Shown one piece after another: positions 2,589-26,755 of a stretch of DNA of 64,000 bases. The notes under the pieces were generated by a model. That model was not told the DNA's origin and did not search any database. It saw only the letters and a list, made by a program, of their open reading frames with translations. Location of the stretch: positions 25,090 through 89,089 of the forward strand of contig JAFARE010000044.1 in NCBI GenBank assembly GCA_019245575.1. The letters run 5' to 3'. Source of the DNA: Candidatus Dormiibacterota bacterium. Lineage in GTDB: Bacteria > Chloroflexota > Dormibacteria > Aeolococcales > Aeolococcaceae. A program made the position numbers and the translations under genes. Every line of letters starts with the position of its first letter. The first letter of the stretch is position 1.

Positions 2589-2764
2589 CCCGACTGAGGC
2601 GGCGGCGCTGTGCGGCCGCACAGGTCCGAACAGTCTCGACAACGCTGTTGCAGGGTCGCGATCGACAGGGGGCTGACGTTGGGCAGCATCGAGGGCAGGC
2701 CGCGGACGAGCCCGGAACCCCTCGCCGGCAGGCCAGCCACATCAGCCCCAAGGACAGGTCATTC

Positions 2765-4945
2765 GTGCGAGTTGTTTCCGGGAGAGTCACTCTCCTGAGC
2801 GCGGTCATGGCGGCCGGACTGGCGATGGGCGCGCACGCGGCGCAGGCCGCGCAGGAGCCGGTTGGCCACACGCCTGACGCGTTGCACGGCCTGCTGGCCA
2901 AAGCGATCGTCGGCCAGAGCGCCTGCCCCAACTACCCCTACGGCTCGACGATCATCCCCGGCACCCAGTGGGCCGCCGGGCTGGGCTTCACCCAGGCCCA
3001 GGACGGGGCGACCCTCGATGTGGAGAGCAACTGGGACGGCATCTCGTGCGTGCGCGGCCCGGACAGCACGGACACGAGCGACCGCTGGGGACTCGACTTT
3101 CAGTGCACCCAGCTGGCGGTGCGCGCCGCCGACGTCGAGTGGGGTGAGGGCGATCAGAGCGCCTGGTACAGCGCCGGCTGGAACGGCAACGCCTACAACA
3201 TGTTCGACGTCGCCCAGAGCCTGCCCCGGCCGCTGACCCCGGTGGCCAACGGGTCGGGCCTGCTGCCCAGCCCCGGCGCCCTGCTGGTCTGGGGCGCCAC
3301 CCCGGGCGACCCTACCGGCCACGTGGCCGTGGTCGAGCGGGTGGACAAGGTGAACCAGGTGGTGTGGTTCGTCAGCCAGAACAGCTACTACGCCGAGTAC
3401 GGCATCCCCTACAGCGGCACGACGCTCGATCCGACGTCGAGCTTCGGCCTTCCCCTGCGCGGCTGGTTGGACGCACCGAGGCCGGCGCGCGGCGTCGTGC
3501 TCCGCTCCGACGGCACGTCGGGCTACACCCTCGACGGCTGGGGAGGCGTGCACGGCTTCGGCTCCGCGCCGCCGGTGACCATCACCGGCTACTGGGCCAA
3601 CTGGGACATCGCGCGCGGGCTGGCGCTGCGACCGGACCAGCAGAGTGGCTACACCCTCGACGGCTACGGAGCGCTGCATTCATTCGGCGGCGCGCCGGCG
3701 TTGCAGACGGGCGTCTACTGGGGCTGGGACATCGCGCGCGGGCTGGTGCTGCGGCGTGACGGCGTCAGCGGCTACGTGCTCGACGGCTGGGGGGGCATCC
3801 ACGCCTTCGGGGGCGCGCCCCCCGTGCAGGGCACGGGCTATTGGTACAGGTGGGACATCGCGCGCAGCATCGTGCTGCGGCCGGACCAGGTGAGCGGCTA
3901 CGTGCTCGACGGCTGGGGCGGCATCCATCCCTTCGGCGGCGCGCCGGCGGTGAGCGGGTTCTCCTACTGGACCGGCTGGGACATCGCCCGCGCCATCACG
4001 CTGGGCGGTGACGGCACCAACCCCAACCTCCCGGCAAACAGTGGCTGGGTGGTGGACGGCTGGGGCGGCGTGCACCCCTACGGCGGTGCGCCGGTGGTGT
4101 CGTTCGCCAACGACCCGTACCTGCCGGCGCACGACATCGCTCGCGGCATCGCGTATGCGCCGCTGATCGGCACCGGCGTGGTGGCGACCGGCGCGTTCTC
4201 CCCGGCCACCTTCGCCGCAACCGGCCCGGCGCGCGCGCTCGTCGCCCGGCCCGCCGGCGGTGGCTACGCGCTCGACGGCTGGGGGGCGGTCACCGCATTC
4301 GGCGGCGCGCCGTCGGTGAACAACGTGACCGGCTTCTGGAAGAACTGGGACATCACCCGCGCCTTCGGGCTGCGCGCCGACGGGGTCAGCGGCTACGTGG
4401 TTGACGCCTACGGCGGGTTCCACGAGTTCGGCGGCGCGCCGGCGATCGCCGCGCCGAGGTACTGGAACGGCTCCGACATGGTCCGTGGATTCGCGCTGCG
4501 CGCCGACGGCGCCAGCGGCTACGTGCTCGACCGCTTCGGCAACGTGTGGGCGTTTGGCGGCGCCCCGACCGTGACCCCGAGCGTGACCTGGACGGACGAC
4601 ACGGCGCGGGCGCTGGTGCTTCGCTCGGACGGCGTCAGCGGCTACGTGCTCGACAAGTTCGGCGGCCTCTGGCCGTTCGGCGGCGCGCCGGCACTTCTCG
4701 GCCCGCCGACGTGGTCCGTGGACACGGCGCGCGCCGTGACGCTGCTGACGGACAGCGCCGGCTACGTGCTCGACAAGGAGGGCGGCGTGCATCCCTTCGG
4801 CGGCGCCCCAGCGGTGCGCGGAGCGCCCGTGTGGACCGGCAACGACGTGGCCCGCGGCCTCGTCCTGGCCCCGGGATCGAGCCTGACGAGCGCCCAGGGA
4901 TCGGTGCTCTACCTGGACGGCGTGATCGCGAACTTCGGCTCGTAG
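2765..4945 (+). CDS. secreted CHAP-domain peptidoglycan hydrolase with a C-terminal array of ~42-aa repeats
   Basis: The track ORF is 2648-4945. GTG at 2765 gives a signal-peptide-like N-terminus (VRVVSGRVTLLSAVMAAGLAMGAHAAQA). CHAP signatures are present: catalytic Cys context DFQCTQLAVRA and His context GHVAVVERV. About 10-11 tandem repeats follow (see the repeat feature). Confidence 0.85.
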   Translation: MRVVSGRVTLLSAVMAAGLAMGAHAAQAAQEPVGHTPDALHGLLAKAIVGQSACPNYPYGSTIIPGTQWAAGLGFTQAQDGATLDVESNWDGISCVRGPDSTDTSDRWGLDFQCTQLAVRAADVEWGEGDQSAWYSAGWNGNAYNMFDVAQSLPRPLTPVANGSGLLPSPGALLVWGATPGDPTGHVAVVERVDKVNQVVWFVSQNSYYAEYGIPYSGTTLDPTSSFGLPLRGWLDAPRPARGVVLRSDGTSGYTLDGWGGVHGFGSAPPVTITGYWANWDIARGLALRPDQQSGYTLDGYGALHSFGGAPALQTGVYWGWDIARGLVLRRDGVSGYVLDGWGGIHAFGGAPPVQGTGYWYRWDIARSIVLRPDQVSGYVLDGWGGIHPFGGAPAVSGFSYWTGWDIARAITLGGDGTNPNLPANSGWVVDGWGGVHPYGGAPVVSFANDPYLPAHDIARGIAYAPLIGTGVVATGAFSPATFAATGPARALVARPAGGGYALDGWGAVTAFGGAPSVNNVTGFWKNWDITRAFGLRADGVSGYVVDAYGGFHEFGGAPAIAAPRYWNGSDMVRGFALRADGASGYVLDRFGNVWAFGGAPTVTPSVTWTDDTARALVLRSDGVSGYVLDKFGGLWPFGGAPALLGPPTWSVDTARAVTLLTDSAGYVLDKEGGVHPFGGAPAVRGAPVWTGNDVARGLVLAPGSSLTSAQGSVLYLDGVIANFGS
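3491..4942 (+). repeat. coding tandem repeat array, unit ~40-45 aa, consensus GYxLDGWGGxHxFGGAP-x(6-9)-W-x2-WDIARG-hxL
   Basis: Units can be read directly, for example SGYTLDGWGGVHGFGSAPPVTITGYWANWDIARGLALRPDQQ, SGYTLDGYGALHSFGGAPALQTGVYWGWDIARGLVLRRDGV, SGYVLDGWGGIHAFGGAPPVQGTGYWYRWDIARSIVLRPDQV, and so on. The DNA core GGCTACGTGCTCGAC recurs at about 3771, 3897, 4518, 4639 and 4761. Confidence 0.9.
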
Positions 4946-7504: not shown

Positions 7505-8512
7505 ATGGCGGCCATGACAGAACGGATCGAACGGTCGGTGACATCCATCTCCTGGATTCCGTCGGAGGCCGTCGAGGGGATGACAAAGGCGGCCTTCACA
7601 AGCGGTTTCTCGCACTACGACGACCCGCCACCCGACGTCATCGAGGATCTCGAGGCGCTGCGCGCGGCGGACCGGTTCCGTTTCGCGAACCAGCTCACGG
7701 CGTGGATCGACGTGGACGGCGACCGCATCGTCGACAGCGGCTACACCGGTGGCGGAATGATCGGCGCAACGACGGTGCGGCTGGGACCCAAGGCGATCAC
7801 GTTCGCCGCCGTCCCTCTGCCGGACAAGCAGGAAACGCCCGACGTGGGCGGCACGTGGGCGCGCTTCACGCAGACCGCCGGCGGCCGCACCGGGCTGCCC
7901 GCGCCGCGGCCGGTGCGCTATCCGCCGTTCGTGCAGATCAGCGCGCCGATTGCATGGACGACACTGTCGCTGACCATCCACGCAGACGGGCGCGCCGAGC
8001 ACGCGGTCGCCGGCGCGAGCGCATTTCCGCGCCACTGGATCTACGACGACGGCGGGAAGCTCGTCGCCAAGACCGGGCTGGTGGACTGGAGCGACTGGTT
8101 CGGCAAGGCGTTTGGCAGCCGCACGCCGTGGGGCGGCGAGGATTCGCCCGCGCTGGTCACGCAGGTGGAGACAGCACTGGAGCGTGAGCTGTCGACGCAC
8201 ATCATGCGCGGCGAGCGCAGGCCGCGCATCCGCGAGGTGAAGGCCGGCGCGATGCTCGTGGAGCAGGGCGACGTGGGCACGCAGCTCTACCTCGTGCTCG
8301 ACGGCGTGCTCTCGGTTGAGGTGAGCGGCGAACCGCTGGCACAGGTGGGGCCGGGTGCGGTGCTGGGCGAGCGCGCGCTGCTGGAGAGCGGCGCGCGCAC
8401 GGCGTCACTGCGCGCGGTGACGCAGTGCAGGGTTGCCGAGGTCGAGGGCGACGCCATCGACCCGTCATTCCTGCATGAGCTCGCCGTGGGTCACCGCCGC
8501 GAGCACGGCTGA
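7505..8512 (+). CDS. protein with an unassigned ~230-aa N-terminal domain and a C-terminal cyclic-nucleotide-binding domain
   Basis: Start at ATG 7505 (MAAMTERIERSVTSISWIPSEAVEG). The C-terminal cNMP-binding beta-barrel signature is VKAGAMLVEQGDVGTQLYLVLDGVLSVEVSGEPLAQVGPGAVLGERALLESGARTASLRAVTQCRVAEV. No HTH was seen. Confidence 0.8.
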   Translation: MAAMTERIERSVTSISWIPSEAVEGMTKAAFTSGFSHYDDPPPDVIEDLEALRAADRFRFANQLTAWIDVDGDRIVDSGYTGGGMIGATTVRLGPKAITFAAVPLPDKQETPDVGGTWARFTQTAGGRTGLPAPRPVRYPPFVQISAPIAWTTLSLTIHADGRAEHAVAGASAFPRHWIYDDGGKLVAKTGLVDWSDWFGKAFGSRTPWGGEDSPALVTQVETALERELSTHIMRGERRPRIREVKAGAMLVEQGDVGTQLYLVLDGVLSVEVSGEPLAQVGPGAVLGERALLESGARTASLRAVTQCRVAEVEGDAIDPSFLHELAVGHRREHG

Positions 8513-13184: not shown

Positions 13185-14489
13185 TTACACCTCACCGAGC
13201 GCGCGCCGGCCGGACATGCCGGCGTCGCTCAGTTCCGCGCCCTCGCCACCGCTCTCCACACGGCGACGGATGAGCTCGCGCTCGGCTGGGTTCTGCGTCA
13301 GCTCCAGCGCCCGCGCGTCCGCCTCGCGCGCTTCGTCATGACGTCCGAACGCGCGCAGCAGCTCCGCACGCGTCGCGTGGTAGAGGTGATACCGATCCAG
13401 CGCCGGCGCCAGCGCCTCCACCTCCTCCATTGCGGCCGCAGCTCCGCCCACGTGCCACAGGGCGATGGCACGATTCAAGCGCACCACCGGCCCCGGAGCG
13501 AAGCGCAGCAGCGCCCCGTACAACGCGAGGATCTCCGGCCAGTCGGTCGCCTCGTACGACGGCGCTTCTGCGTGCGTCGCGGCGATCGCCGCCTGCAGCC
13601 AGTACGGCCCCGGTGAACCGAGACGTCGCGCCCGTTCCAGCAGCGCCGCCGCGGACGCGATGGTGTCGCCGTCCCACAGCGCGCGGTCCTGGTCGCGCAG
13701 CAGCACGAGTGCGCCGCCGGCGTCGAACCGCGCCGCCCGGCGTGCCTCGTGCAGCTGCATGAGCGCGAGCAGCGACATCACCTCGGGCTCATCCGGCAGC
13801 AGCCGGTCGACGAGCCGACAGAGCCACAGCGCATCCGCGCACAGGTCCCGGGCGGTGCTGCGCTCCGGCCCGCTGCTCAGGTAGCCCTCGTTGTAGACGA
13901 GATACAGCATCGCCAGCACCTGCGTGAGCCGCTCGGGCAGCATCTCCGCATTCGGCACGCGATACGGAATGTGCGCCTCGACGATCTTGCGCTTGGCTCG
14001 CACGATGCGCTGCGCCATCGTCGCTTCGCTCACAAGGAATGCGCGCGCGATCTCGGCCGTCGTCATCCCCATCACCGCGCGCAGCGTCAGCGCAACCTGC
14101 GCCTCACGCGCGATCGCCGGGTGGCAGCACGTGAACACGAGGCGCAGGCGGTCGTCCGGCTCGCCCTCGCTCGAGCCTGACGCCATCGACATCAGCAGCT
14201 CCAGCTTCTCCCGGTAGCGGGTCTCGCGCCGCAATCGGTCGATGCCGCGGCGCCGGGCCGCCTGCAGCAGCCACGCGCCGGGCCGGTCGGGCAGGCCGTC
14301 GCGGGGCCACGTGCGCAGCGCCGCCTCGATGGCGTCCTGCACCAGGTCCTCGGCGAGGTCGAGGTCGCCCAGCTGCCGCGTGAGCTCGGCGCAGATCGCA
14401 CCCGCCTCCTCGCGGAAGACGGCGCTGATGGCATCGGCTGCGCCGCCGCCACCGGCCGTGACATCGATCGACATCGGCCCCCCGCTCAC
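13185..14489 (-). CDS. ECF-type RNA polymerase sigma factor with a long C-terminal TPR-like extension (COG4941-type)
   Basis: Sigma region 2 is DLAEDLVQDAIEAALRTWPRDGLPDRPGAWLLQAARRRGIDRLRRE. Region 4 is VMGMTTAEIARAFLVSEATMAQRIVRAKRKI. A ~230-aa helical C-terminal extension follows. GTG 14489 overlaps the stop of the upstream YciI gene (GTGA). Confidence 0.88.
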   Translation of the reverse strand: MSGGPMSIDVTAGGGGAADAISAVFREEAGAICAELTRQLGDLDLAEDLVQDAIEAALRTWPRDGLPDRPGAWLLQAARRRGIDRLRRETRYREKLELLMSMASGSSEGEPDDRLRLVFTCCHPAIAREAQVALTLRAVMGMTTAEIARAFLVSEATMAQRIVRAKRKIVEAHIPYRVPNAEMLPERLTQVLAMLYLVYNEGYLSSGPERSTARDLCADALWLCRLVDRLLPDEPEVMSLLALMQLHEARRAARFDAGGALVLLRDQDRALWDGDTIASAAALLERARRLGSPGPYWLQAAIAATHAEAPSYEATDWPEILALYGALLRFAPGPVVRLNRAIALWHVGGAAAAMEEVEALAPALDRYHLYHATRAELLRAFGRHDEAREADARALELTQNPAERELIRRRVESGGEGAELSDAGMSGRRALGEV

Positions 14490-14845
14490 ATCCCCATCTC
14501 GCCGTGCTCGACGATGGGGCGGATCTCCACTGCATGGTCGTGCGCCGGCCAGCGCTGCGCGATCGCGATCGCCTCATCGAGATCCTCAGCCTCGATGATG
14601 GTGAACCCGCCGATGCCCTCCTTCGTCTCCATGAAGGGCCCGTCGGTCACGAGCGGCTTGCCCTCGGCCCAGCGCACGGTCGTCGCGGTGGTCATCGGCT
14701 GCAGCTCGGCGCCCGGGTTCGCGATCTTCCCGTTCGATCCGAGGTCCATGAAGAACCGGTTGATCGACTGGTAGACGTCACCGTGGTCGGGCCTGGACAG
14801 GAATCCCTCCTCGTCCTCGCGAATGAACATGAGCGCGTACTTCAT
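14486..14845 (-). CDS. YciI-like protein with the DGPF(M)ETKE motif
   Basis: MKYALMFIREDEEG...GKPLVTDGPFMETKEGIGGFTIIEAEDLDEAIAIAQRWP, 119 aa. Confidence 0.88.
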   Translation of the reverse strand: MKYALMFIREDEEGFLSRPDHGDVYQSINRFFMDLGSNGKIANPGAELQPMTTATTVRWAEGKPLVTDGPFMETKEGIGGFTIIEAEDLDEAIAIAQRWPAHDHAVEIRPIVEHGEMGM

Positions 14846-14921
14846 CGGGCTGCACCTCCAACGTCTTCATGGCGTGCCTCGATAGTGACGACGAACGAGC
14901 CCAAGCGAAATCGACAGCCGC

Positions 14922-16379: not shown

Positions 16380-19073
16380 GTGAGGGGTTCGGGAACACTC
16401 GCGCGGCTGGCATGCGTCAGCGCAGCGCTGTCCACCGTGGTCATGATGACGGCGGCCGACTGGCCGCAGTTCCTCGGCGACCCGTCCAAGGACGGCGCCG
16501 GACAGGACACGACGCTCTCGGTGACGAATGCGCCACAGCTGAGCAAACTGTGGAACTACACCACGGGTGGCGTCGTCGCACCGTCGGCCAGTGTGGCCAC
16601 CGAGACCATCAACGGCACGTCCACACCAGTCGCGTACGTCGGCTCCTGGGACGGCAACGAGTACGCGCTCAACGCGAACACCGGCGCGCTCATCTGGAAG
16701 ACATACCTCGGAATCACGTCGAGCACGACCTGCAAGGCGCCGCCCAGCGCCGGCATCAGCTCGGCGGCGGCCATCTTCAACGGGGTCGTCTACGTGGGCG
16801 GGAGCGATCCCAGTGGCGGCACCAATTCCCAGTGGTTCGCGCTGGACGCAACCACCGGCAGCATCCTCTGGTCCGTTCCCACCGGCAACGACAGCACGAG
16901 TGGCGGCCATTACAACTGGGCCAGCCCCCTGATCGTCACGGATCCGAACGGCAAGCACTACGCATACGTCGGCATCTCCAGCTTCGGTGACTGCCCGCTG
17001 GTGCAGGGTCAGCTGCTGCAGGTGGACCTGGACGCGCACGCCATCGTGCACACCTGGGACGCCGTGGCCAACGGCCACGTTGGCGGCGGCATCTGGACGT
17101 CACCCGCGTATGACGCGCAGAACAACGAGGTCTGGGTCACCACCGGCACGATCGCGGGAAGTGGCACCACATTCCAGTATGAGGAGGCCATCGTCGCGCT
17201 CAACGCGAGCAACATCTGCGCCAACTCGTCAACGCCGACTGCCGCGACGTGCGGGGCCACGGCCGGCACGAGCGCAGCCAAGTTCTGGCAGCTCCCGCCG
17301 GGCGACCGCGTGAACGACTCCGACTGGGGCACCACACCAACGGTCTACACCGACGAGAACGGCAACCAGATGGTCGCCGCCATCAACAAGAACGGCTTCG
17401 CGTACGCGTGGAACCGCCAAACGCTCAACGCGGCCGGCACGCAGTCGTGGGTGTGGAAGAAGCAGGTCGACACCGGCGGCGTGTGCCCCACGTGCGGTGA
17501 CGGGAGCGTCTCCTCAGGCGCGTACGACTCCATCAACCACATGCTCTTCCTGTCAGGCGGCCATACAACCATCAACGGCACGGCGGTCAACGGCTTCGTG
17601 AGGGCCCTCGACCCGGCCACGGGCAGCTTCATCTGGGAGCACGGGATGTCGAATCCCGTCATCCCGGCGCTCGCGTACGACAACGGCGTCGTCGCGGTCG
17701 GCGCAGGTGCGACCTTCAGCGTTCTCAACTCGTCGACCGGAGCGGCGCTGTACAGCACGAATCCTGGGTCGGGCACGTTCTACGGCGCACCCAGCTTTGG
17801 GGACGGTGAGATCTTCATCGGCTCGACCAACAAGAACGAGTACGCCTTCGGCATCCCCGGCGGCAGCCCGCCGCCACCGCCCACATGTCCCACGGGGTGG
17901 AACTGCAACGACATCGGCGGCGCGCTGCCCGCGGGTACTCAGTCGAGCAGCGGCAACTCCTGGACGGTCACCGGAGGGGGTGCTGACATCTGGGGCACGA
18001 GCGACCAGTTCCACTACGTCTGGCGCTCGATGACCAACAACAACAGCGTCAGCGCGCACATTGCCTCGCTTACCGGCACCAATCTCAGCACCTGGGCCAA
18101 GGCCGGCGTGATGCTGCGCACCACGACCGATCCGGGATCGCCGTATTACGCTGCGTACGTCACGCCGGGCAACGGCATCGCTGTGCAGTACCGCACCGCA
18201 CAGGGCGGCACAGCAGTGATGCCGCCCGCGCAGGCCGGCACCATCCCGACCTACCTCGAGGTCGCGGACACAGCGGACTCGCTCACCGCGTACACGTCGC
18301 CCGACGGCGTCACATGGACAGCCATCGCCGGTTCGACCATCACGCTGCCTCTGGGCACGTCGATCACCGGTGGTGTGGCGCTGACATCGCACCAGCAGGG
18401 CGTCGCAGCGACGCTCGGCGTCGACAGCGTCACCGTGCAGAGCACCGGAGGCGCGCCGCCGCCCCCACCCGGTTGCCCCACCAGCTGGAACTGCGCTGAC
18501 ATCGGAGGGGTGTTCCCTCCCGATCCGGCCGGCAGTGAGTCGCTGAGCGCGGGTGCCTGGAACATCACCGGCTCCGGCGGCGATATCTTCGGGACCTCAG
18601 ACCAGTTCCACTACGTGTGGCAGCAGCCGAACCTGGGAAGCAACGAGACCATGGTCGCCCACCTCGACACTCAGACCGTGACGAACGCTTGGGCCAAGGC
18701 GGGCATCATGTTCCGGCTGAACACCGATCCAACCAACGGCGCAGGCTCGCCGCAGTACTCCATGATGGTGACGCCGAGCCACGGCATCATCGTCGAGTGG
18801 CGTGCCGCTCAGGGCGCGACGACGGCGCGCATCGCGACCATCGCAACCGGGGTCGCCCCCGCCTGGCTCAAGATCACGCGAACGGTGGACAGCAACAACG
18901 TCTCGACATTCAGCGCATTCACCTCCACCGACGGCATCAACTGGACGCCGATGGCCGGCTCGGTGGTCACAAGCACGACGGTGACCGGTGCGATGTACGA
19001 GGGCCTCGCCGTGACGTCGCACCAGTGGAACGCACTGAGCACCGTCACCATGGACAGCGTTACCGCGCAGTAA
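16380..19073 (+). CDS. secreted PQQ-like beta-propeller repeat protein with two C-terminal concanavalin/DUF1349-like lectin-type domains
   Basis: Signal-like N-terminus, then ADWPQFLGDPSKDG and repeated xYVGSxDGxxYALxAxTGxxxW blades. Two ~190-aa copies follow of (G)PPPPP-x-CPT-x-WNC-x-DIGG...GADIWGTSDQFHYVW...WAKAGxMxR...VTSHQ, at about 17880-18440 and 18470-19070. Confidence 0.85.
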   Translation: MRGSGTLARLACVSAALSTVVMMTAADWPQFLGDPSKDGAGQDTTLSVTNAPQLSKLWNYTTGGVVAPSASVATETINGTSTPVAYVGSWDGNEYALNANTGALIWKTYLGITSSTTCKAPPSAGISSAAAIFNGVVYVGGSDPSGGTNSQWFALDATTGSILWSVPTGNDSTSGGHYNWASPLIVTDPNGKHYAYVGISSFGDCPLVQGQLLQVDLDAHAIVHTWDAVANGHVGGGIWTSPAYDAQNNEVWVTTGTIAGSGTTFQYEEAIVALNASNICANSSTPTAATCGATAGTSAAKFWQLPPGDRVNDSDWGTTPTVYTDENGNQMVAAINKNGFAYAWNRQTLNAAGTQSWVWKKQVDTGGVCPTCGDGSVSSGAYDSINHMLFLSGGHTTINGTAVNGFVRALDPATGSFIWEHGMSNPVIPALAYDNGVVAVGAGATFSVLNSSTGAALYSTNPGSGTFYGAPSFGDGEIFIGSTNKNEYAFGIPGGSPPPPPTCPTGWNCNDIGGALPAGTQSSSGNSWTVTGGGADIWGTSDQFHYVWRSMTNNNSVSAHIASLTGTNLSTWAKAGVMLRTTTDPGSPYYAAYVTPGNGIAVQYRTAQGGTAVMPPAQAGTIPTYLEVADTADSLTAYTSPDGVTWTAIAGSTITLPLGTSITGGVALTSHQQGVAATLGVDSVTVQSTGGAPPPPPGCPTSWNCADIGGVFPPDPAGSESLSAGAWNITGSGGDIFGTSDQFHYVWQQPNLGSNETMVAHLDTQTVTNAWAKAGIMFRLNTDPTNGAGSPQYSMMVTPSHGIIVEWRAAQGATTARIATIATGVAPAWLKITRTVDSNNVSTFSAFTSTDGINWTPMAGSVVTSTTVTGAMYEGLAVTSHQWNALSTVTMDSVTAQ

Positions 19074-19133: not shown

Positions 19134-21359
19134 ATGGGGCAGATGGGGGGGCCCAGGGGGCCGGGGTTTGTTCGCGCGCTCGAAGCGCTGCTGCTGGTGG
19201 GCACCGTGATGGTGCTCGCCGGTGCGGACTGGCCGTCATATCTGGGTGACGGCCAGCGCGACGGCGCGGCCGCGGACACCAGCATCTCCCCGGCGAACGC
19301 GTCGCAGCTGACCACGCTCTGGAGCTTCAAGACCGACGGCCCGATCGCCACCACGCCCGCCGTGGTCGGCGGTGTGGCCTACGTCGGCTCCTGGGACGGC
19401 TATGAGTACGCGCTCGACGCAGTCACCGGTGCGATGCGCTGGAAGACCTACCTCGGCGTCACAAACGTCCCGCCGTGCAACCCGCCGGTCATGGGCATCA
19501 CCTCGTCGGCGACCGTGCAGAACGGCGTCGTGTACGTGGGCGGCGGCGGCTCCAACTGGTACGCGCTGGACGCGAACACCGGCGCCATCCTGTGGTCGGT
19601 GCCCACCGGCGACAACTCCGCATCTGGTGGCCACTACAACTGGTCCAGCCCGCTGATCCTCACCGCCGCCGACCGCAACACCTACGCCTACATCGGCGTC
19701 TCCAGCGACTGCGACAGCCCGCTCGTGCAGGGCCAGTTGATCCAGGTCGACGTCAACACGCACGCGGTGGTGCACACCTTCAAGGTGGTGCCCGACGGGC
19801 ACATCGGCGGCGGCATCTGGACCTCGCCCGCGGCCGACCCGGCCACGAACCGGGTGTACGTCACCACCGGGACCATCGCCGGCTCCGACACCGCGTCTGC
19901 GCAGCAGCATTCCGAGGCGATCCTCGCGCTGGACGCGAGCAATGTGTGCAGCGCGGATCCCGCGTGCGGGACGCCACTCGACGCGTGGCAGGTGCCGCCG
20001 TCCGCGCGCACGACCGACTCCGACTGGGGCACGACGCCCACGCTGTTCACCGATGAGAACGGCAACCCGCTGGTCGCCGCGATCAACAAAAACGGCATCG
20101 CCTACGTGTGGAACCGGGGCAACCTCGCCGCCGGGCCCGTGTGGCAGACCCAGATCGCCGTGGGTGGCGAGTGCCCGCAGTGCGGCAACGGCAGCGTCTC
20201 GTCGGGCGCGTTCGGCGGCGGCGCGCTGTACCTCGCCGGCGGCAACACGACGATCAACGGCGCCGCGGCAAAGGGATCGGTGCGCGCGTTCGACCCCGCC
20301 ACAGGAAACATCGTCTGGCAGCACGCAGCAGCCGGCGTCGTCATCCCGGCGCTGGCGTACGACAACGGACTCGTCATTGACGGCGCCGGCGCGACCCTCG
20401 AGGTGCTGAGCGCGAGCACCGGCAGCAGGCTCTTCAGCTTCACCGCAGCCAAGGTGTTCTACGGCGCGCCGAGCGTGGCCAACGGCGAGATGTTCGCCGG
20501 CTCTGTCGACGGCAACCTGTACGCGTTCGGCCTGCCCAGCATGAACAGCGGAGGCCCTCCGCCCACCGCGGGCTACACGCTCGACGGCCTGGGCGGCGTC
20601 CATCCGTATGGCGGGGCGCCCAGCATCGCCGCGAGCGCGTACTGGCCCAACTGGGACATCGCGCGCGGTCTCGCGCTCCGTCCCGACCGGGTGAGCGGGT
20701 ACACGCTCGACGGCTGGGGCGGCCTGCATGCCGACGGCGCCGCACCCGCGATCACCAATGGACCGTACTGGCAGGGCTGGGACATCGCGCGCGGCGTGGT
20801 CATCGACACGTGCGACGGCGACACATCGGGCGGCAGCGGCTACGTGCTCGACGGATGGGGCGGCGTGCACGCGTTCGGCACCGCTCCGGCGGTCGACATC
20901 TCGATGTGGCGCGAGGACTGGGACATCGCCCGTGGCATCGTCCTCAACCCGTGCTCGAGCAGCCCCACCAGCGGCTACGTGCTCGACGGCTGGGGTGGGC
21001 TGCACCCGTTCCAGACGCACGGCGCGGCGCCGATCGCAACGCCGGCCGTGTCGGCGTGGTGGGCGCACTGGGACATCGCGCGCGGCATCGTCATCACGTC
21101 GGCCGGATCCGGATACGTGCTCGACGGCTACGGCGGGGTGCATCCATTCGGTGGCGCCGGCGCGCTCACGGCATCCGCGTACTTCAGCGGCCAGGACATC
21201 GCGCGCACCGTGACGTACAGCGCCGCGCTCAACGGCGGCTACGTGCTCGACTCGTACGGCGGGCTGCACCCGTGGTGGATCAACGGCCAGGGGCCGATCG
21301 CGAATCCGTACAACCCGAACCACTGGGGCTGGGCGATCGCGCGCGGCGAAGCGCAGTAG
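19134..21359 (+). CDS. secreted PQQ-like beta-propeller repeat protein (paralogue of 16380-19073) with six C-terminal GYxLDGWGG...WDIARG repeats
   Basis: The N-terminal ~470 aa align by eye with the previous gene, for example VAYVGSWDGYEYALDAVTGAMRWKTYLG and SDWGTTPTLFTDENGNPLVAAINKNGIAYVWNR. The C-terminus carries the same repeat type as the CHAP protein. Confidence 0.88.
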   Translation: MGQMGGPRGPGFVRALEALLLVGTVMVLAGADWPSYLGDGQRDGAAADTSISPANASQLTTLWSFKTDGPIATTPAVVGGVAYVGSWDGYEYALDAVTGAMRWKTYLGVTNVPPCNPPVMGITSSATVQNGVVYVGGGGSNWYALDANTGAILWSVPTGDNSASGGHYNWSSPLILTAADRNTYAYIGVSSDCDSPLVQGQLIQVDVNTHAVVHTFKVVPDGHIGGGIWTSPAADPATNRVYVTTGTIAGSDTASAQQHSEAILALDASNVCSADPACGTPLDAWQVPPSARTTDSDWGTTPTLFTDENGNPLVAAINKNGIAYVWNRGNLAAGPVWQTQIAVGGECPQCGNGSVSSGAFGGGALYLAGGNTTINGAAAKGSVRAFDPATGNIVWQHAAAGVVIPALAYDNGLVIDGAGATLEVLSASTGSRLFSFTAAKVFYGAPSVANGEMFAGSVDGNLYAFGLPSMNSGGPPPTAGYTLDGLGGVHPYGGAPSIAASAYWPNWDIARGLALRPDRVSGYTLDGWGGLHADGAAPAITNGPYWQGWDIARGVVIDTCDGDTSGGSGYVLDGWGGVHAFGTAPAVDISMWREDWDIARGIVLNPCSSSPTSGYVLDGWGGLHPFQTHGAAPIATPAVSAWWAHWDIARGIVITSAGSGYVLDGYGGVHPFGGAGALTASAYFSGQDIARTVTYSAALNGGYVLDSYGGLHPWWINGQGPIANPYNPNHWGWAIARGEAQ
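20571..21356 (+). repeat. coding tandem repeat array, six units of the GYxLDGWGGxHxFGxAP...WDIARG type
   Basis: Units include GYTLDGLGGVHPYGGAPSIAASAYWPNWDIARGLALRPDRVS, GYTLDGWGGLHADGAAPAITNGPYWQGWDIARGVVI..., GYVLDGWGGVHAFGTAPAVDISMWREDWDIARGIVL... and GYVLDSYGGLHPWW...WAIARGEAQ. The DNA core GG(C/A)TACGTGCTCGAC occurs at about 20839, 20974, 21112 and 21238. Confidence 0.9.
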
Positions 21360-23507: not shown

Positions 23508-25187
23508 TCAGGTCGGCTGCACGAAGGGAGTGCTCGGCGCCAGACCCAGGTCGTTCTGCAGGTTGTTGATCGCACTCTGCGCGCGCGCCTCGTCGCCGGT
23601 GAACTGGCTCGTGGTCAGGCCCTGACCCGCGCTGCGCAGGTCGCCGATCAGCGCCGCGTCAGCATTGGTCAGGCCGTGCACGTCCGAGGACATCGCCCCG
23701 GGAAACGGCATCGTCAGCAGCGCGTTGTCAAACGCCTGGATGGCCTCGGCGTACGTGCTATCGTAGCCCGACTCGTTGCTCGGCGTGTCCGCGCCCTGCT
23801 GCAGCAGCGAATCCACCTGCGACACCCACACGCTCGTGGCCGCGTTGCGCCGGCCCGCCGCCTGGCGGTACTGCTGCCGCAAGCCACTGAGGTCGGCGGC
23901 CACGGGTGCGAGTGACGGTGCGTGCGACGGCTGCGCCGGGCCGGGCGACGGTGATCTGCCCAGCAGGACGGCGACGACGACGACCAGCACAACCAGCCCG
24001 GCCGCGACGGCGACGAGCCATGCCCAGCGCGTGCGCCGTGACGCGGCACCCGGCGACGGCGCCGGCGGCGGTGCGGGTGAGCGAGCGGATCTCGGCTCGG
24101 GCGCGAGGACAGGCTCGGGTGGCGGTGGCGGAGGCGGCAGCGGCGCCGCTTCCACATCGAGGCTTGCGGAGCCGCCGTTCCGCTGCGCGGATTCGGAGAC
24201 CTGCAGCGGCGCCGTGGCGAGCGGAACACCGAGCTCGGTGAGCAGGCGCTGCATGTAGTCGAGGTACTCGGTGGGGCTGAAGTGATGCGTGCACTGATAG
24301 CCGATGTAGTCCTGCGAGTTGGCGTCGGACATGTTGAGCAGGAACGTCTGCTCGCGGTTGCAGCTGCCGCAGTGCGCGAAGATGAGGAAGGGGTGCACGC
24401 TCAGCAGCGGCCGGAACTCGCTAGCCCTGTCGAGCAGGTACAGCTGCTTGTCCGGATACGCGTCCGCCAGCAGCACCGGGTTCGGCGCCGCGCGCGGGCT
24501 CTGACCGGTGAGATGCGTGACCACGTGACGGTAGCGGTGCGCGCCCTGCGGGTCGAACTCGAGGGTCACGCTGCGCACGTACACCAGGCGGTACTCGGCG
24601 AGCGCGCTCATGTGCAGATACAGCTCGCGCAGCGCCGGCGCGAGCAGGCCGGCGGCAATGGCGCGGTCGTGTGGACTCGGCCTCGCACCGTGCGCCAGCC
24701 GGTTGCGATAGCCGATGAGCAGGTCGAAGAACTGCTGCGTGGTCACACTCGTTGCATCACCCGCGCCGGCGCGGTATCCCATGGCGGCCATCGCGCTGGA
24801 CAGGCTCTGCGTCGCCGCGAGCACGGCCCCCTGGTGGCGCATGCGATAGAAGGAGTCGAGCTCCGGAATCGCCATCGCGCGCCCGCTGCGCCGGTACAGA
24901 CCCAGGATGTCGCGCAGCCAGCCGTTCCAGTGTCCCAGGCTGGGCCGCTGGATCTCGGCGAGCTCGGCGTTGATGCGCGCGTCGCCGGTGTGGTCGTGAA
25001 AGTACTGCGCCAGCGCGATCGTCGCGCAGTACTTCAGGGTTACCTCGAACAGGTCGAGCAGGTACTCGTGCGCCTCCACCGGATCCGGCGCCTGGAACTG
25101 GGCGCGGTCGTATGTGGCCACCAGCGGGTACGGATAGCGGTCGCAGATCTCCTGGTCGACGCGCTCCAGCTCGTCGCCCGCGATCAC
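23508..25187 (-). CDS. hypothetical single-pass membrane protein: cytoplasmic helical domain with an RNxxxH (HEPN-like) motif, a Cys/His cluster, a poly-Pro linker, a TM helix and an extracytoplasmic tail
   Basis: Start proposed at GTG 25187-25185, overlapping the upstream stop TGA 25186-25184 (GTGA); the track ORF extends to 25280. Motifs: FFDLLIGYRNRLAHGARPS (24690-24707 encodes RNRLAH), FAHCGSCNREQ...YQCTHHF, PLPPPPPPPEP, and TM WAWLVAVAAGLVVLVVVVAVLLG. GC3 is high and composition is normal. Confidence 0.8.
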   Translation of the reverse strand: MIAGDELERVDQEICDRYPYPLVATYDRAQFQAPDPVEAHEYLLDLFEVTLKYCATIALAQYFHDHTGDARINAELAEIQRPSLGHWNGWLRDILGLYRRSGRAMAIPELDSFYRMRHQGAVLAATQSLSSAMAAMGYRAGAGDATSVTTQQFFDLLIGYRNRLAHGARPSPHDRAIAAGLLAPALRELYLHMSALAEYRLVYVRSVTLEFDPQGAHRYRHVVTHLTGQSPRAAPNPVLLADAYPDKQLYLLDRASEFRPLLSVHPFLIFAHCGSCNREQTFLLNMSDANSQDYIGYQCTHHFSPTEYLDYMQRLLTELGVPLATAPLQVSESAQRNGGSASLDVEAAPLPPPPPPPEPVLAPEPRSARSPAPPPAPSPGAASRRTRWAWLVAVAAGLVVLVVVVAVLLGRSPSPGPAQPSHAPSLAPVAADLSGLRQQYRQAAGRRNAATSVWVSQVDSLLQQGADTPSNESGYDSTYAEAIQAFDNALLTMPFPGAMSSDVHGLTNADAALIGDLRSAGQGLTTSQFTGDEARAQSAINNLQNDLGLAPSTPFVQPT

Positions 25188-26755
25188 GTCCGCAAGCTCC
25201 TGCTGAGCACCCGGTAGAGCAGCACGCCGAGCCCGAAGCCCGTCACGCCCACGGCGAGGCTGAGCACCATGTCGTACCACTGGATGCCGGCGGGCCCGGC
25301 ATGCGCCACTGCGTTGCGCACCACGGCGACGTTGACGGCGGAGTTCACCAGGATGAACAGCCAGACGGGGACTCCCACGAGGAACCCGATGCGGTTGAAG
25401 CGCCGCTCCGTCGCCTTCATCCGGGCCTCGCGCCGCTCGGCGGCGGCACCGGCGCGTTCGCGCTCACGCAGCTCGAGGTCGGTGTGCATCTCGCGAACCT
25501 CGGCGCTCACCTGCTCGTAGAGCTGCGTGATCTGGAATGTGCGCAGCCAGTGCTCGTAGTAGCGATGGTGGTGCTCCTCCTGCATCGTCTGCGGGAAATA
25601 CCCCTGCGCGGTGAAGGCGAGGAGCGCGTCATGGATGCGGGCAAAAGCCGTCGCCCGGGCCGCGGCGGTGGCGCCGCTCACCCAGTGGCGCGACACGTCC
25701 TGGGAGAGCTTCATCAGCACGAACCGCTGCTGCAGCGCGAGCAGGAAGAGCAGGAAGTACTGGCGCTCGATGTGCGCCGGCAGCGTGCCGCGAAAGAACG
25801 GATCGGCGGGGGCGTCGCGCGCCAGGAACCCTCCCCCGTTGAGCGAGAAGAAGAACCATTGACGTTCCGCGTACTCCATCACTGCCGTGCCGGGCTGGTC
25901 GCCGGGGCGCGCGTCCTGGTCGGCGTGGAAGAAGTTGCGCAAGCGGTACAGCGTGCGCGCGCCGTCGGTCGCGTCGCCGCCGTCGATGTAGACCGACGGG
26001 TAGGGCAGCAGCACACCCGGCACGAAGATCTCCCGCCACCACCGTGACGGCTGCTCGCCGCTCGCTGCCTGTTCGAGCAAGCCACCGAGGATCTCGCCGA
26101 GATATCTCGCCGCCCCGGGCGCGGCGGCGGCCCCGGCGACGGGCGGGAAGTACGCAGCCGCGGCGGCGTGACCGTCGCCGTCGGGCTGCACGCGCCGCTC
26201 CGCGCGCAGGCTCGGAGCCCGCTCGCCGGCGGCGAAGCGGAAGTGGTGGATGAAGTCGAACCAGTCTCGCGGTGAGTCCGAGAGCGGCTGCGCTCGCACC
26301 GCCAGGAAGCCCACGCCGTGCCGGAACAGGGCGAGCTCGACGCCGTGCAGCGCGAACGCGATGTCGCTGTGGGGCGTGTGCAGCGTCCATGCCGCCCCAC
26401 CATGCGCCCGTCCTCCGCCGAGCCCGGCCGGCGACCGCAGCGCATCCTCGTCCATCCGCCACAGCGCGGCGGCGCGGGGAGTTCCGTCCGTGGGCTGCAG
26501 AAACTCGGCGACATGCGCGAGCAGGTCGGTGGTGGGGAACTGCTGCTGCCGCCACACGCTCAGCGGGCGCCGGCCCGTCCAGACAGATCCCTCGACCGCG
26601 GCCGCGCGCTCCGCGAAGGTTCGGCCGTCGAAGGTGAACGGCTGCACGAACCGGAGCGCCGACGCCTCTCGGTCCACCACGGCCGAATCGGGCTCCATGG
26701 CGGACGCTGCGGTGCGTGGCGGCGCCGCCGCCAGATCCGCCTGTTCGACGCTCAC
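25184..26755 (-). CDS. hypothetical protein with a large cytoplasmic domain, a coiled coil and a C-terminal two-TM hairpin (CorA/RMD1-like layout, no GMN motif)
   Basis: 523-aa ORF with very high GC3 and normal composition (FDGRTFAERAAAVEGSVWTG..., RQYFLLFLLALQQRFVLMKLSQDVS, YFPQTMQEEHHHRYYEHWLRTFQITQLYEQV). The coiled coil is EVREMHTDLELRERERAGAAAERREARMKATERRFNR. TM1 is IGFLVGVPVWLFILVNSAVNVAVV and TM2 is MVLSLAVGVTGFGLGVLLY. The start is GTG 26755 or ATG 26698. Confidence 0.8.
   Translation of the reverse strand: MSVEQADLAAAPPRTAASAMEPDSAVVDREASALRFVQPFTFDGRTFAERAAAVEGSVWTGRRPLSVWRQQQFPTTDLLAHVAEFLQPTDGTPRAAALWRMDEDALRSPAGLGGGRAHGGAAWTLHTPHSDIAFALHGVELALFRHGVGFLAVRAQPLSDSPRDWFDFIHHFRFAAGERAPSLRAERRVQPDGDGHAAAAAYFPPVAGAAAAPGAARYLGEILGGLLEQAASGEQPSRWWREIFVPGVLLPYPSVYIDGGDATDGARTLYRLRNFFHADQDARPGDQPGTAVMEYAERQWFFFSLNGGGFLARDAPADPFFRGTLPAHIERQYFLLFLLALQQRFVLMKLSQDVSRHWVSGATAAARATAFARIHDALLAFTAQGYFPQTMQEEHHHRYYEHWLRTFQITQLYEQVSAEVREMHTDLELRERERAGAAAERREARMKATERRFNRIGFLVGVPVWLFILVNSAVNVAVVRNAVAHAGPAGIQWYDMVLSLAVGVTGFGLGVLLYRVLSRSLRT

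Follow-up and report, generated by a model that had tools for sequence, protein, structure and literature searches.

A CRISPR-type CorA-like membrane protein encoded with a probable HEPN-like, sensor-bearing partner and no CRISPR-Cas genes nearby in a Candidatus Dormiibacterota genome

What might drive a CorA-type membrane effector when no CRISPR-Cas machinery lies nearby? In the literature cited here, the CorA effector is described solely as an accessory of type III CRISPR systems (PMC11229360, PMC12669027). The question is raised by two adjacent genes in a stretch of 64,000 nucleotides (nt) from a “Candidatus Dormiibacterota” genome (GenBank assembly GCA_019245575.1, contig JAFARE010000044.1, positions 25,090 to 89,089), which we refer to as the window and whose numbering is used throughout. 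Both genes are on the minus strand of DNA that is 70% GC. Gene 1 encodes a CorA-like membrane protein, and gene 2 encodes a single-pass membrane protein whose N-terminal module (approximately residues 1 to 322) is labeled g2N here. Gene 1 belongs to the CRISPR type III-linked CorA-like family, and together the two genes form a co-translated two-gene module without CRISPR-Cas machinery nearby. The core pairing, a CorA-type pore beside a HEPN-motif protein, also occurs in some type III CRISPR loci. With moderate confidence, we read the pair as a CRISPR-independent module in which a sensor and a HEPN-like domain are coupled to a CorA-type pore, its probable role being that of a membrane effector triggered by stress or infection.

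The pair itself proved solid. Both open reading frames (ORFs) occur at the coordinates given in the original prediction, and the codon bias noted there was reproduced: the G+C fraction at third codon positions (GC3) was 0.90 for gene 1 and 0.87 for gene 2, versus approximately 0.50 at second positions (GC2), the signature of real genes in DNA of this composition. Numerous homologues of both proteins were found at E values below 1e-80, and the two genes are therefore real and not chance ORFs. The frame of gene 2 contains a longer ORF beginning at 25280; the GTG start that yields 559 amino acids (aa) was adopted because it agrees with an identical 559-aa database protein (P0001) and with the N termini of homologues. 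The predicted GTGA overlap was confirmed by direct reading, the gene 1 stop codon TGA (25186 to 25184) falling within the gene 2 start codon GTG (25187 to 25185). This 4-nt overlap recurred between called genes in two related loci (L001 and L004), and a 16-nt overlap was present in a third (L003); gene calls in the related loci (L numbers) were heuristic, and most of the related contigs were short.

The original prediction had called the module an orphan and placed neither protein in a family. For gene 1, this did not hold. Its product matched the PADLOC CorA-like profile PDLC01175 with an E value of 3.3e-39 over aa 24 to 344, and two further PADLOC CorA profiles matched as well, namely, PDLC01043 (E = 7.5e-16) and, over the stalk, PDLC01174 (E = 1.9e-11). 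The PADLOC CorA-like profiles derive from type III CRISPR accessory genes. Pfam and NCBIfam were silent, with no match to the canonical CorA/ZntB family PF01544 even at E ≤ 1, and a gene 1 profile found no relevant match among PDB sequences. The AlphaFold2 (AF2) model (predicted local distance difference test score, pLDDT, 89.3) consisted of a beta-rich cytoplasmic domain, long helices (those of the stalk spanning aa 319 to 359, 364 to 384, 394 to 406, and 409 to 473), and a helical hairpin. Ranks 1 to 18 of a Foldseek search of this model against PDB were all CorA, at weak E values of 0.012 to 0.1 and with approximately 330 aligned columns, and PF01544 was carried by two gene 1 homologues (P0066 and P0071). 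The predicted ground plan, that of a CorA protein lacking the GMN signature, was thereby borne out, as were the Arg/Glu-rich helix (aa 418 to 455) and the C-terminal hairpin of two transmembrane (TM) helices; a motif search found neither GMN nor GxN after aa 440.

By analogy with CorA, gene 1 presumably assembles as a pentamer. Its likeness to canonical CorA/ZntB comprises these weak but best structural matches and the conserved proline of the first TM helix, whereas it differs from them in lacking GMN and any PF01544 match and in having a larger and different cytoplasmic domain. A canonical Mg2+ channel was rejected for gene 1 on the grounds of the missing GMN and PF01544 match. The comparison with RMD1/DUF155, also drawn originally, found no support and was rejected, with no Pfam DUF155 match at E ≤ 1.

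Where do the relatives of gene 1 occur? Scanning one genome for each species turned up 56 related loci, spanning Dormibacteraeota, Armatimonadota, cyanobacteria, Acidobacteriota, Planctomycetota, Desulfobacterales, Chloroflexi, and others. At eight cyanobacterial loci, the CorA-like gene was followed by a gene for a Csx1-like CARF-HEPN protein and then by those for Cas10b (E = 0), Cmr3, and Cmr4; at six further loci it was followed by Csx1, most of these also having an upstream WYL gene. The CRISPR-adjacent cyanobacterial proteins were 35 to 40% identical to gene 1, and a CRISPR-adjacent relative (L023) matched PDLC01175 at an E value of 6e-121. The motifs QWFxxSLNGGGF, FTAQGYF, and MQxEHHHR were common to gene 1 and its CRISPR-adjacent relatives. 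Likewise, S32, D77, R173, and N274 of the cytoplasmic domain were conserved in g2N-linked, CRISPR-linked, and other copies, and stalk residues Q389, Q392, H396, H397, R398, and Y400 were at least 94% conserved in all three context groups. That the polar cytoplasmic motifs are retained whatever the context points to a shared gating site. In a neighbor-joining tree, the g2N-linked clade containing gene 1 of the window was monophyletic and separate from the main CRISPR clade of cyanobacteria, but the CRISPR-linked L023 nested among g2N-linked copies. CorA-like copies of the Fimbriimonadales stood alone amid metabolic genes.

Two size or copy variants within this family deserve mention. CRISPR-linked cyanobacterial CorA-like proteins of 745 to 870 aa (L029, 3429 to 5756; L030, 251 to 2674; L032, 7977 to 10583; L033, 7995 to 10583; L038, 371 to 2614) have an extra 250 to 350 aa beyond the profile-matching part, and the one scanned, that of L029, is without a Pfam match. 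L018 (7953 to 11051) has a tandem pair of CorA-like paralogues, of which the second has diverged strongly (E = 5e-14), and they adjoin a 2,072-aa protein on the opposite strand that has a g2N-like domain.

No CRISPR-like tandem array, no tRNA, and no second copy of gene 1 or gene 2 were found in the window, and a tblastn search of its 64 kb with Cas10b, Cmr3, Cmr4, Csx1, and WYL proteins returned nothing below an E value of 0.02. Homologues of cas10, cmr, and csx1 were also absent from the 8- to 10-kb flanks of g2N-linked loci. Among Pfam-checked neighbors there was no DHH, DEDD, or lyase gene, and the sole coupled gene was gene 2. Gene 1 is like the type III CRISPR CorA in its profile homology, its shared polar motifs, and its plan of a large cytoplasmic domain, a stalk, and a two-TM CorA-type C terminus; it is unlike it in having no cas10, cmr, or array within 64 kb and in standing beside a single-pass g2N protein and not beside NrN, DEDD, or SAM-lyase. 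For the CorA of the Bacteroides fragilis Cmr system, binding of S-adenosylmethionine-AMP (SAM-AMP), a need for the TM domain in immunity, and toxicity upon expression alone have been described, and a ligand-opened channel was the authors' proposal (PMC10600005). Published accounts describe the activator of some CorA clades as unknown (PMC12669027) and the gating of CorA beyond the SAM-AMP clade as an open question (PMC11229360, PMC12669027).

The partner was harder to place: no Pfam, NCBIfam, or PADLOC family was found for gene 2. Conservation among its homologues was confined to the first ~322 residues, that is, to g2N, which AF2 modeled with a pLDDT of 89 and a predicted template modeling (pTM) score of 0.88 as a nine-helix domain (aa 1 to 198) followed by a beta domain (aa 201 to 303) and a short helix. 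Invariant residues of g2N in the close family were E48, K52, R81-P-S-L-G85, W87, R161, N162, and H166, the last three of which form the RNxxxH motif that had been predicted in the helical domain and that proved near-invariant. Its R, N, and H each reached at least 90% conservation in A1, A4, and A7, as did R and N in A5, and all three residues remained above 90% across the distant members. Close relatives had the spacing Rx4H, and distant ones had Rx5H (YRNxxxGHG). In the all-helical domain of the model, the motif lies at the end of helix 150 to 165, ahead of helix 172 to 192.

When 20 diverse g2N modules were scanned singly against Pfam, 5 of the 24 weakly matched families were of HEPN type (HEPN_RiboL-PSP, HEPN_MAE_28990, HEPN_Swt1, HEPN_Apea, and Abi_C). 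The match to HEPN_RiboL-PSP had an E value of 0.0017 and 18.7 bits versus a cutoff of 28.4. In the two members examined, all HEPN matches lay over the motif region and the C-terminal part of the profile, that is, the Rx4-6H site. On the basis of the motif and these subthreshold profile matches, and not of the fold, the helical domain of gene 2 is probably HEPN-like, and the near-invariant RNxxxH suggests catalysis rather than a purely regulatory subunit.

The rest of gene 2 was as originally described, with a CxxC...CxHH cluster, a poly-Pro linker, a single TM helix, and a tail of about 150 residues (147 aa). The cluster residues C273, C276, C299, and H301 were at least 90% conserved in the close family, and the gene 2 sequence reads CGSC at 273 to 276 and C-T-H-H at 299 to 302. 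The sequence RRTR before the TM helix places the N terminus in the cytoplasm. Foldseek matches of the beta domain were weak and OB/SSB-like, and the gene 2 profile matched, among PDB sequences, solely WD40 proteins, which corresponded to the fused tails of homologues. Two weak profile matches were otherwise obtained for gene 2, one to PDC-M05B (E = 0.032) and one to an anti-sigma profile on the low-complexity linker; an anti-sigma factor (NCBIfam NF052375) was rejected, the match scoring 22.6 bits versus a cutoff of 100 and lying on the linker and TM helix (aa 339 to 454). The tail belonged to no Pfam family, and a search with the tail alone found no homologue, a weak negative in that the identical P0001 was not returned either, apparently having been missed by the word-based candidate step. 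In the closest relatives (P0002 to P0004), the N-terminal module was 72 to 75% identical, but only 58 to 62% of the gene 2 query aligned.

Gene-neighborhood comparison confirmed that other genomes, too, keep the two genes together as a unit. All close gene 2 homologues (at least 45% identity) for which upstream DNA was present had a CorA-like gene directly upstream (L061 to L064 and L067 to L069). A CorA-like gene also directly adjoined a g2N gene at L001, L002/L044 (two WD40 paralogues, then CorA), L003/L008, L004, L006, L007, L009, and L012. A broader hidden Markov model added g2N-like CorA neighbors in Fervidibacter (L010, L011, and L016), Planctomycetota (L018), Desulfobacteraceae (L019), Thiodictyon (L035), Aminicenantales (L040), and Anaerolineae (L042). 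With Csx1-like proteins included, an RNxxxH protein was next to the CorA-like gene at ~36 of ~55 loci, compared with an estimated ~8% per neighbor by chance. Pairwise distances of the CorA-like and g2N proteins were correlated (Spearman, 0.89; 12 loci), which is consistent with inheritance as a unit, though shared species history contributes.

Some observations on these loci stand apart. An apparent fusion of a CorA C terminus to a g2N helical domain (L057, 8835 to 10406) was set aside, its CorA part being frameshifted; it may be an assembly artifact of a locus from a metagenome-assembled genome. Defense- or toxin-antitoxin-like neighbors were seen at only two loci: in L001, a gene for a PemK-family toxin (7728 to 8284), itself preceded by a small ORF, lies directly upstream of the pair, and in L002 a Uma2-family endonuclease gene (14297 to 14857) lies directly downstream.

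The g2N family is large, and its distal parts vary. The g2N profile retrieved 2,834 representatives of 50%-identity clusters at E ≤ 1e-3 and 1,152 at E ≤ 1e-10, with g2N nearly always N-terminal in proteins of 300 to 2,250 aa. Among 37 long members, TPR was found in 17, protein kinase in 13, a beta-propeller in ~5, and NB-ARC in 4. In the closest relatives, g2N is followed by a TM helix and tail, FHA, zinc ribbons, WD40, DUF1080, or LGFP, and at L019 the CorA neighbor with the g2N-like domain is a NACHT protein. The module is therefore a constant head whose distal part is freely exchanged between lineages. Two proteins had tandem g2N copies at aa ~4 to 307 and ~414 to 714 (L079, 165 to 5753, and L080, 5995 to 11082; P0086 and P0085, respectively), an arrangement to be expected were the module, like HEPN domains, active as a dimer. 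In several Dormibacteraeota loci (L003/L008, L004, L006, L007, and L012), g2N was fused to FHA-FHA-ABC_tran-ABC2_membrane in proteins of ~1,200 aa; at L001, a separate ABC transporter followed the g2N gene instead. At L001 and all of those Dormibacteraeota loci, a Ser/Thr kinase gene adjoined the g2N gene on the opposite strand. We take this layout to resemble that of mycobacterial Rv1747/PknF, a likeness that concerns the Dormibacteraeota relatives only, as gene 2 of the window has neither FHA nor ABC domains.

Several known systems share parts of this design. In Actinomyces, a divergent CorA clade that lacks enzymes for SAM-AMP degradation is associated, and in two instances fused, with the HEPN protein Csm6-2 (PMC11229360). 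As in these and the cyanobacterial CorA/Csx1-like pairs, the CorA-like gene of the window adjoins a gene for an Rx4H protein, with gene order and strand shared in most cases. The Actinomyces and cyanobacterial partners, however, carry a CARF sensor for Cas10 products, whereas the putative sensor of gene 2 is its TM helix and tail, and relatives of gene 2 have FHA, WD40, TPR, kinase, or STAND parts in place of CARF. STAND/NLR and kinase/TPR conflict proteins and the nucleotide-responsive 2TM SLATT effectors (PMC7159879) also offer a parallel, in that a constant N-terminal g2N is combined with variable repeat, NTPase, or kinase parts and with a separate two-TM effector, across Chloroflexi, cyanobacteria, Planctomycetota, and Acidobacteriota; unlike those systems, g2N is not in Pfam, NCBIfam, or PADLOC, the window copy has no NTPase or repeats, and the partner is CorA-type. 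Cas13b-Csx28 (bioRxiv 10.1101/2021.11.02.466367) is a functional analogy, in which the activity of a HEPN RNase triggers a membrane pore, encoded by a gene of its own, and the cell is slowed; it differs in that Csx28 has no relationship to CorA and that Cas13b, unlike anything in the pair, is guided by RNA.

How might such a module work? In the mechanism that we favor, the variable part of the gene 2 protein would sense a cue. Here, this part would be the extracytoplasmic tail; in relatives, it would be FHA read by the neighboring Ser/Thr kinase, WD40, zinc ribbons, TPR, or a STAND NTPase. Sensing would activate the constant HEPN-like g2N module, which might open the CorA-like pore either by direct contact or via a small product of its predicted RNase activity. 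Ion leakage or membrane depolarization could then halt growth, in line with what has been proposed for CorA as a CRISPR effector. The pattern of sensor swapping argues that gene 2 acts upstream of gene 1 and is not a mere off-switch.

Several observations weigh against this effector reading. All HEPN matches in Pfam were below the curated cutoffs and came from 2 of the 20 members scanned, and the gene 2 protein of the window itself had no HEPN match in Pfam. Nor was the original HEPN call confirmed by fold, as a Foldseek search with g2N returned nothing at E ≤ 0.001 in PDB or BFVD and no HEPN structure. An hhalign comparison of g2N with the Csx1-like CARF-HEPN proteins of the CRISPR loci gave a probability of 0.1, with no detectable sequence similarity; the two pairings of CorA with HEPN may thus be analogous and not homologous, a common origin being unsupported. 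Distant g2N genes (L071, L074, L075, and L080 to L082) had no CorA-like gene in their available flanks, and the module is therefore not obligatorily tied to CorA and works in other settings too. The window copy sits amid housekeeping genes, with nadE, BKACE, and ppa (the flanks originally predicted) joined by a response regulator and a GAF histidine kinase in Pfam searches of the neighbors, and has no mobile element, CRISPR array, or tRNA around it. Finally, the Dormibacteraeota FHA-FHA-ABC fusion and its kinase could equally mean regulation of the envelope or of transport.

A role in abortive infection or defense, as suggested in the original prediction, is one that we infer. We found no defense island surrounding this copy, and when 104 neighbor proteins from 12 related loci were searched against PADLOC, kinase profiles alone appeared among the 25 families listed. 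Of these profiles, PD-T4-6, mad6, MkoA, and C3a189 were each matched by the same six proteins, and we treated the kinase matches as generic kinase similarity.

The alternative that survives best, although we consider it unlikely, is a housekeeping module, in which a regulated cation channel and gene 2 as its regulatory subunit would link envelope cues or kinase signaling to ion flux or transport, with no part in immunity. Normal composition, the housekeeping flanks, and the lack of mobile elements fit this view, and so do the kinase-only PADLOC result and the solitary Fimbriimonadales copies; the transporter fusion beside a Ser/Thr kinase in Dormibacteraeota fits it as well, whereas the rapid replacement of C-terminal parts and the NB-ARC/NACHT fusions seen elsewhere in the family are typical of immune receptors. 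The GMN selectivity motif is missing from the family, the only characterized relatives are CRISPR effectors (PMC10600005), and a near-invariant RNxxxH suggests catalysis over pure regulation. The PemK toxin and Uma2 nuclease genes that adjoin the pair at two loci also count against a housekeeping role.

HEPN domains of some Csm6 proteins have been reported to degrade cyclic oligoadenylates (cOA), and gene 2 could by the same token be an off-switch. Gene 1 would then be opened by a diffusible SAM-AMP- or cOA-like signal made elsewhere, for example, by a type III CRISPR system outside the window, and gene 2 would degrade that signal, taking the part of the NrN, DEDD, or SAM-AMP lyase found beside the CRISPR CorA. 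We hold this to be rather less plausible than a housekeeping role. The fusions of g2N to kinase, TPR, WD40, NB-ARC, and FHA are the pattern of an input-controlled effector and not of an off-switch, and most g2N proteins of the distant branches occur without a CorA-like gene in the available flanks. The polar motifs conserved between CRISPR-linked and g2N-linked copies would suit a shared ligand site, and the CRISPR CorA has been described as obligately associated with degradative enzymes and is toxic alone (PMC10600005). Neither the window, which spans only 64 kb, nor the 8- to 10-kb flanks of g2N-linked loci contained cas10, cmr, or csx1, and the window contained no array.

HEPN toxins commonly have a co-translated restraining partner, overlapping genes would favor a fixed stoichiometry, and g2N is widespread without CorA and so able to work alone; one might therefore picture the HEPN-like RNase as the sole effector, a sensor-controlled toxin, and the CorA-like protein as a scaffold or antitoxin-like inhibitor that forms no pore. 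This is the least probable of the alternatives, and in our view very improbable, given that the TM hairpin, P463, and the stalk motifs are as conserved as in CRISPR-linked copies, whose role in immunity depends on the TM domain (PMC10600005), and that a conserved channel-like protein of 523 aa is large for a mere inhibitor.

The features of the pair are listed in Table 1.

Table 1. Positions of the two genes and their features in the 64-kb window
Feature	Position	Strand	Basis
Gene 1, CorA-like membrane protein, 523 aa	25184..26755	-	ORF listing
Gene 1 cytoplasmic alpha/beta domain, aa 27-313, putative ligand or partner sensing	25817..26677	-	PDLC01175 coverage; AF2
Gene 1 helical stalk, aa 319-456, including the Arg/Glu-rich helix	25388..25801	-	AF2
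Gene 1 stalk motif FTAQGYFPQTMQEEHHHRYY, aa 381-400	25556-25615	-	
Gene 1 TM helix 1, aa 455-480, with invariant P463	25316..25393	-	Hydropathy scan
Gene 1 TM helix 2, aa 494-518	25202..25276	-	Hydropathy scan; AF2 helix 491-522
AGGAG, Shine-Dalgarno-like, inside gene 1, 9 nt before the gene 2 GTG	25197..25201	-	
GTGA start/stop overlap of gene 1 and gene 2 (translational coupling)	25184..25187	-	Sequence read directly
Gene 2, single-pass membrane protein, 559 aa, with N-terminal g2N module	23508..25187	-	ORF listing; identical database protein P0001
Gene 2 helical domain, probably HEPN-like, aa 1-198	24594..25187	-	AF2, nine helices
RNRLAH (Rx4H motif), aa 161-166	24690..24707	-	
Gene 2 beta-rich domain, aa 199-322	24222..24593	-	AF2 strands 201-303
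Cys/His cluster (C273, C276, C299, H301) in the beta domain	24282-24371	-	Close-family alignment
Gene 2 Pro-rich low-confidence linker, aa 323-387	24027..24221	-	pLDDT <50 from aa 325
Gene 2 TM helix, ~aa 388-412	23952..24026	-	Hydropathy peak 3.35
Gene 2 extracytoplasmic tail, aa 413-559 (147 aa), putative lineage-specific input domain	23511..23951	-	

Elsewhere in the window, three paralogous PQQ/beta-propeller proteins are encoded on the plus strand (2648 to 4945, 16380 to 19073, and 19134 to 21359), with PQQ_2 matches in Pfam for both of those scanned (the second and third). In at least two of the three, the C-terminal half has tandem repeats of ~42 aa (LDGWGGxHxFG...WDIARG), visible as a Tandem Repeats Finder period of 126/249 nt at 3530 to 3992 and in the translation of 19134 to 21359. 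A gene on the minus strand (13185 to 14489) encodes an extracytoplasmic function (ECF)-type sigma factor with a C-terminal DUF6596 and is unrelated to the pair.

Parts of this picture are familiar: the family of gene 1 had been cataloged before, and bacterial receptors with HEPN heads represent a known kind of protein. What seems new is the wiring, with a CorA effector of the CRISPR type joined to a probably HEPN-like partner that bears a sensor and does not come from a CRISPR system. A literature search, to which most papers in subscription journals were inaccessible, found no description of a CRISPR-independent pair of CorA and a HEPN-like protein or of g2N. A bolder generalization, which we offer as speculation, is that CorA-type pores and HEPN RNases constitute a conserved, sensor-swappable effector pair, in which the gate would be operated by the HEPN protein directly or by a small product of its RNase activity, and not only by Cas10-made SAM-AMP. 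The CRISPR-linked version (CARF-HEPN with CorA) and the CRISPR-free version (g2N with CorA and a TM, FHA, WD40, TPR, kinase, or STAND part) would then represent a single death or dormancy switch wired in two ways, and bacterial immune receptors would have in g2N a new effector head of HEPN type.

The CRISPR-free pairing of gene 1 with a sensor-bearing partner is a natural experiment, in which the pore would be drivable without Cas10, and the two-gene system is small enough for reconstitution. The g2N module, in turn, represents a large family, with ~2,800 clusters, that is in none of the databases searched, carries a catalytic-looking RNxxxH, and is fused to kinase, TPR, WD40, and STAND parts. 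Even as a housekeeping channel and its regulator, the pair would add to the CorA superfamily a class of regulated channel that is new. If g2N is an immune or stress effector, it would add a new wiring from input to pore and may help to explain why CorA genes lie beside those of HEPN proteins in several CRISPR loci.

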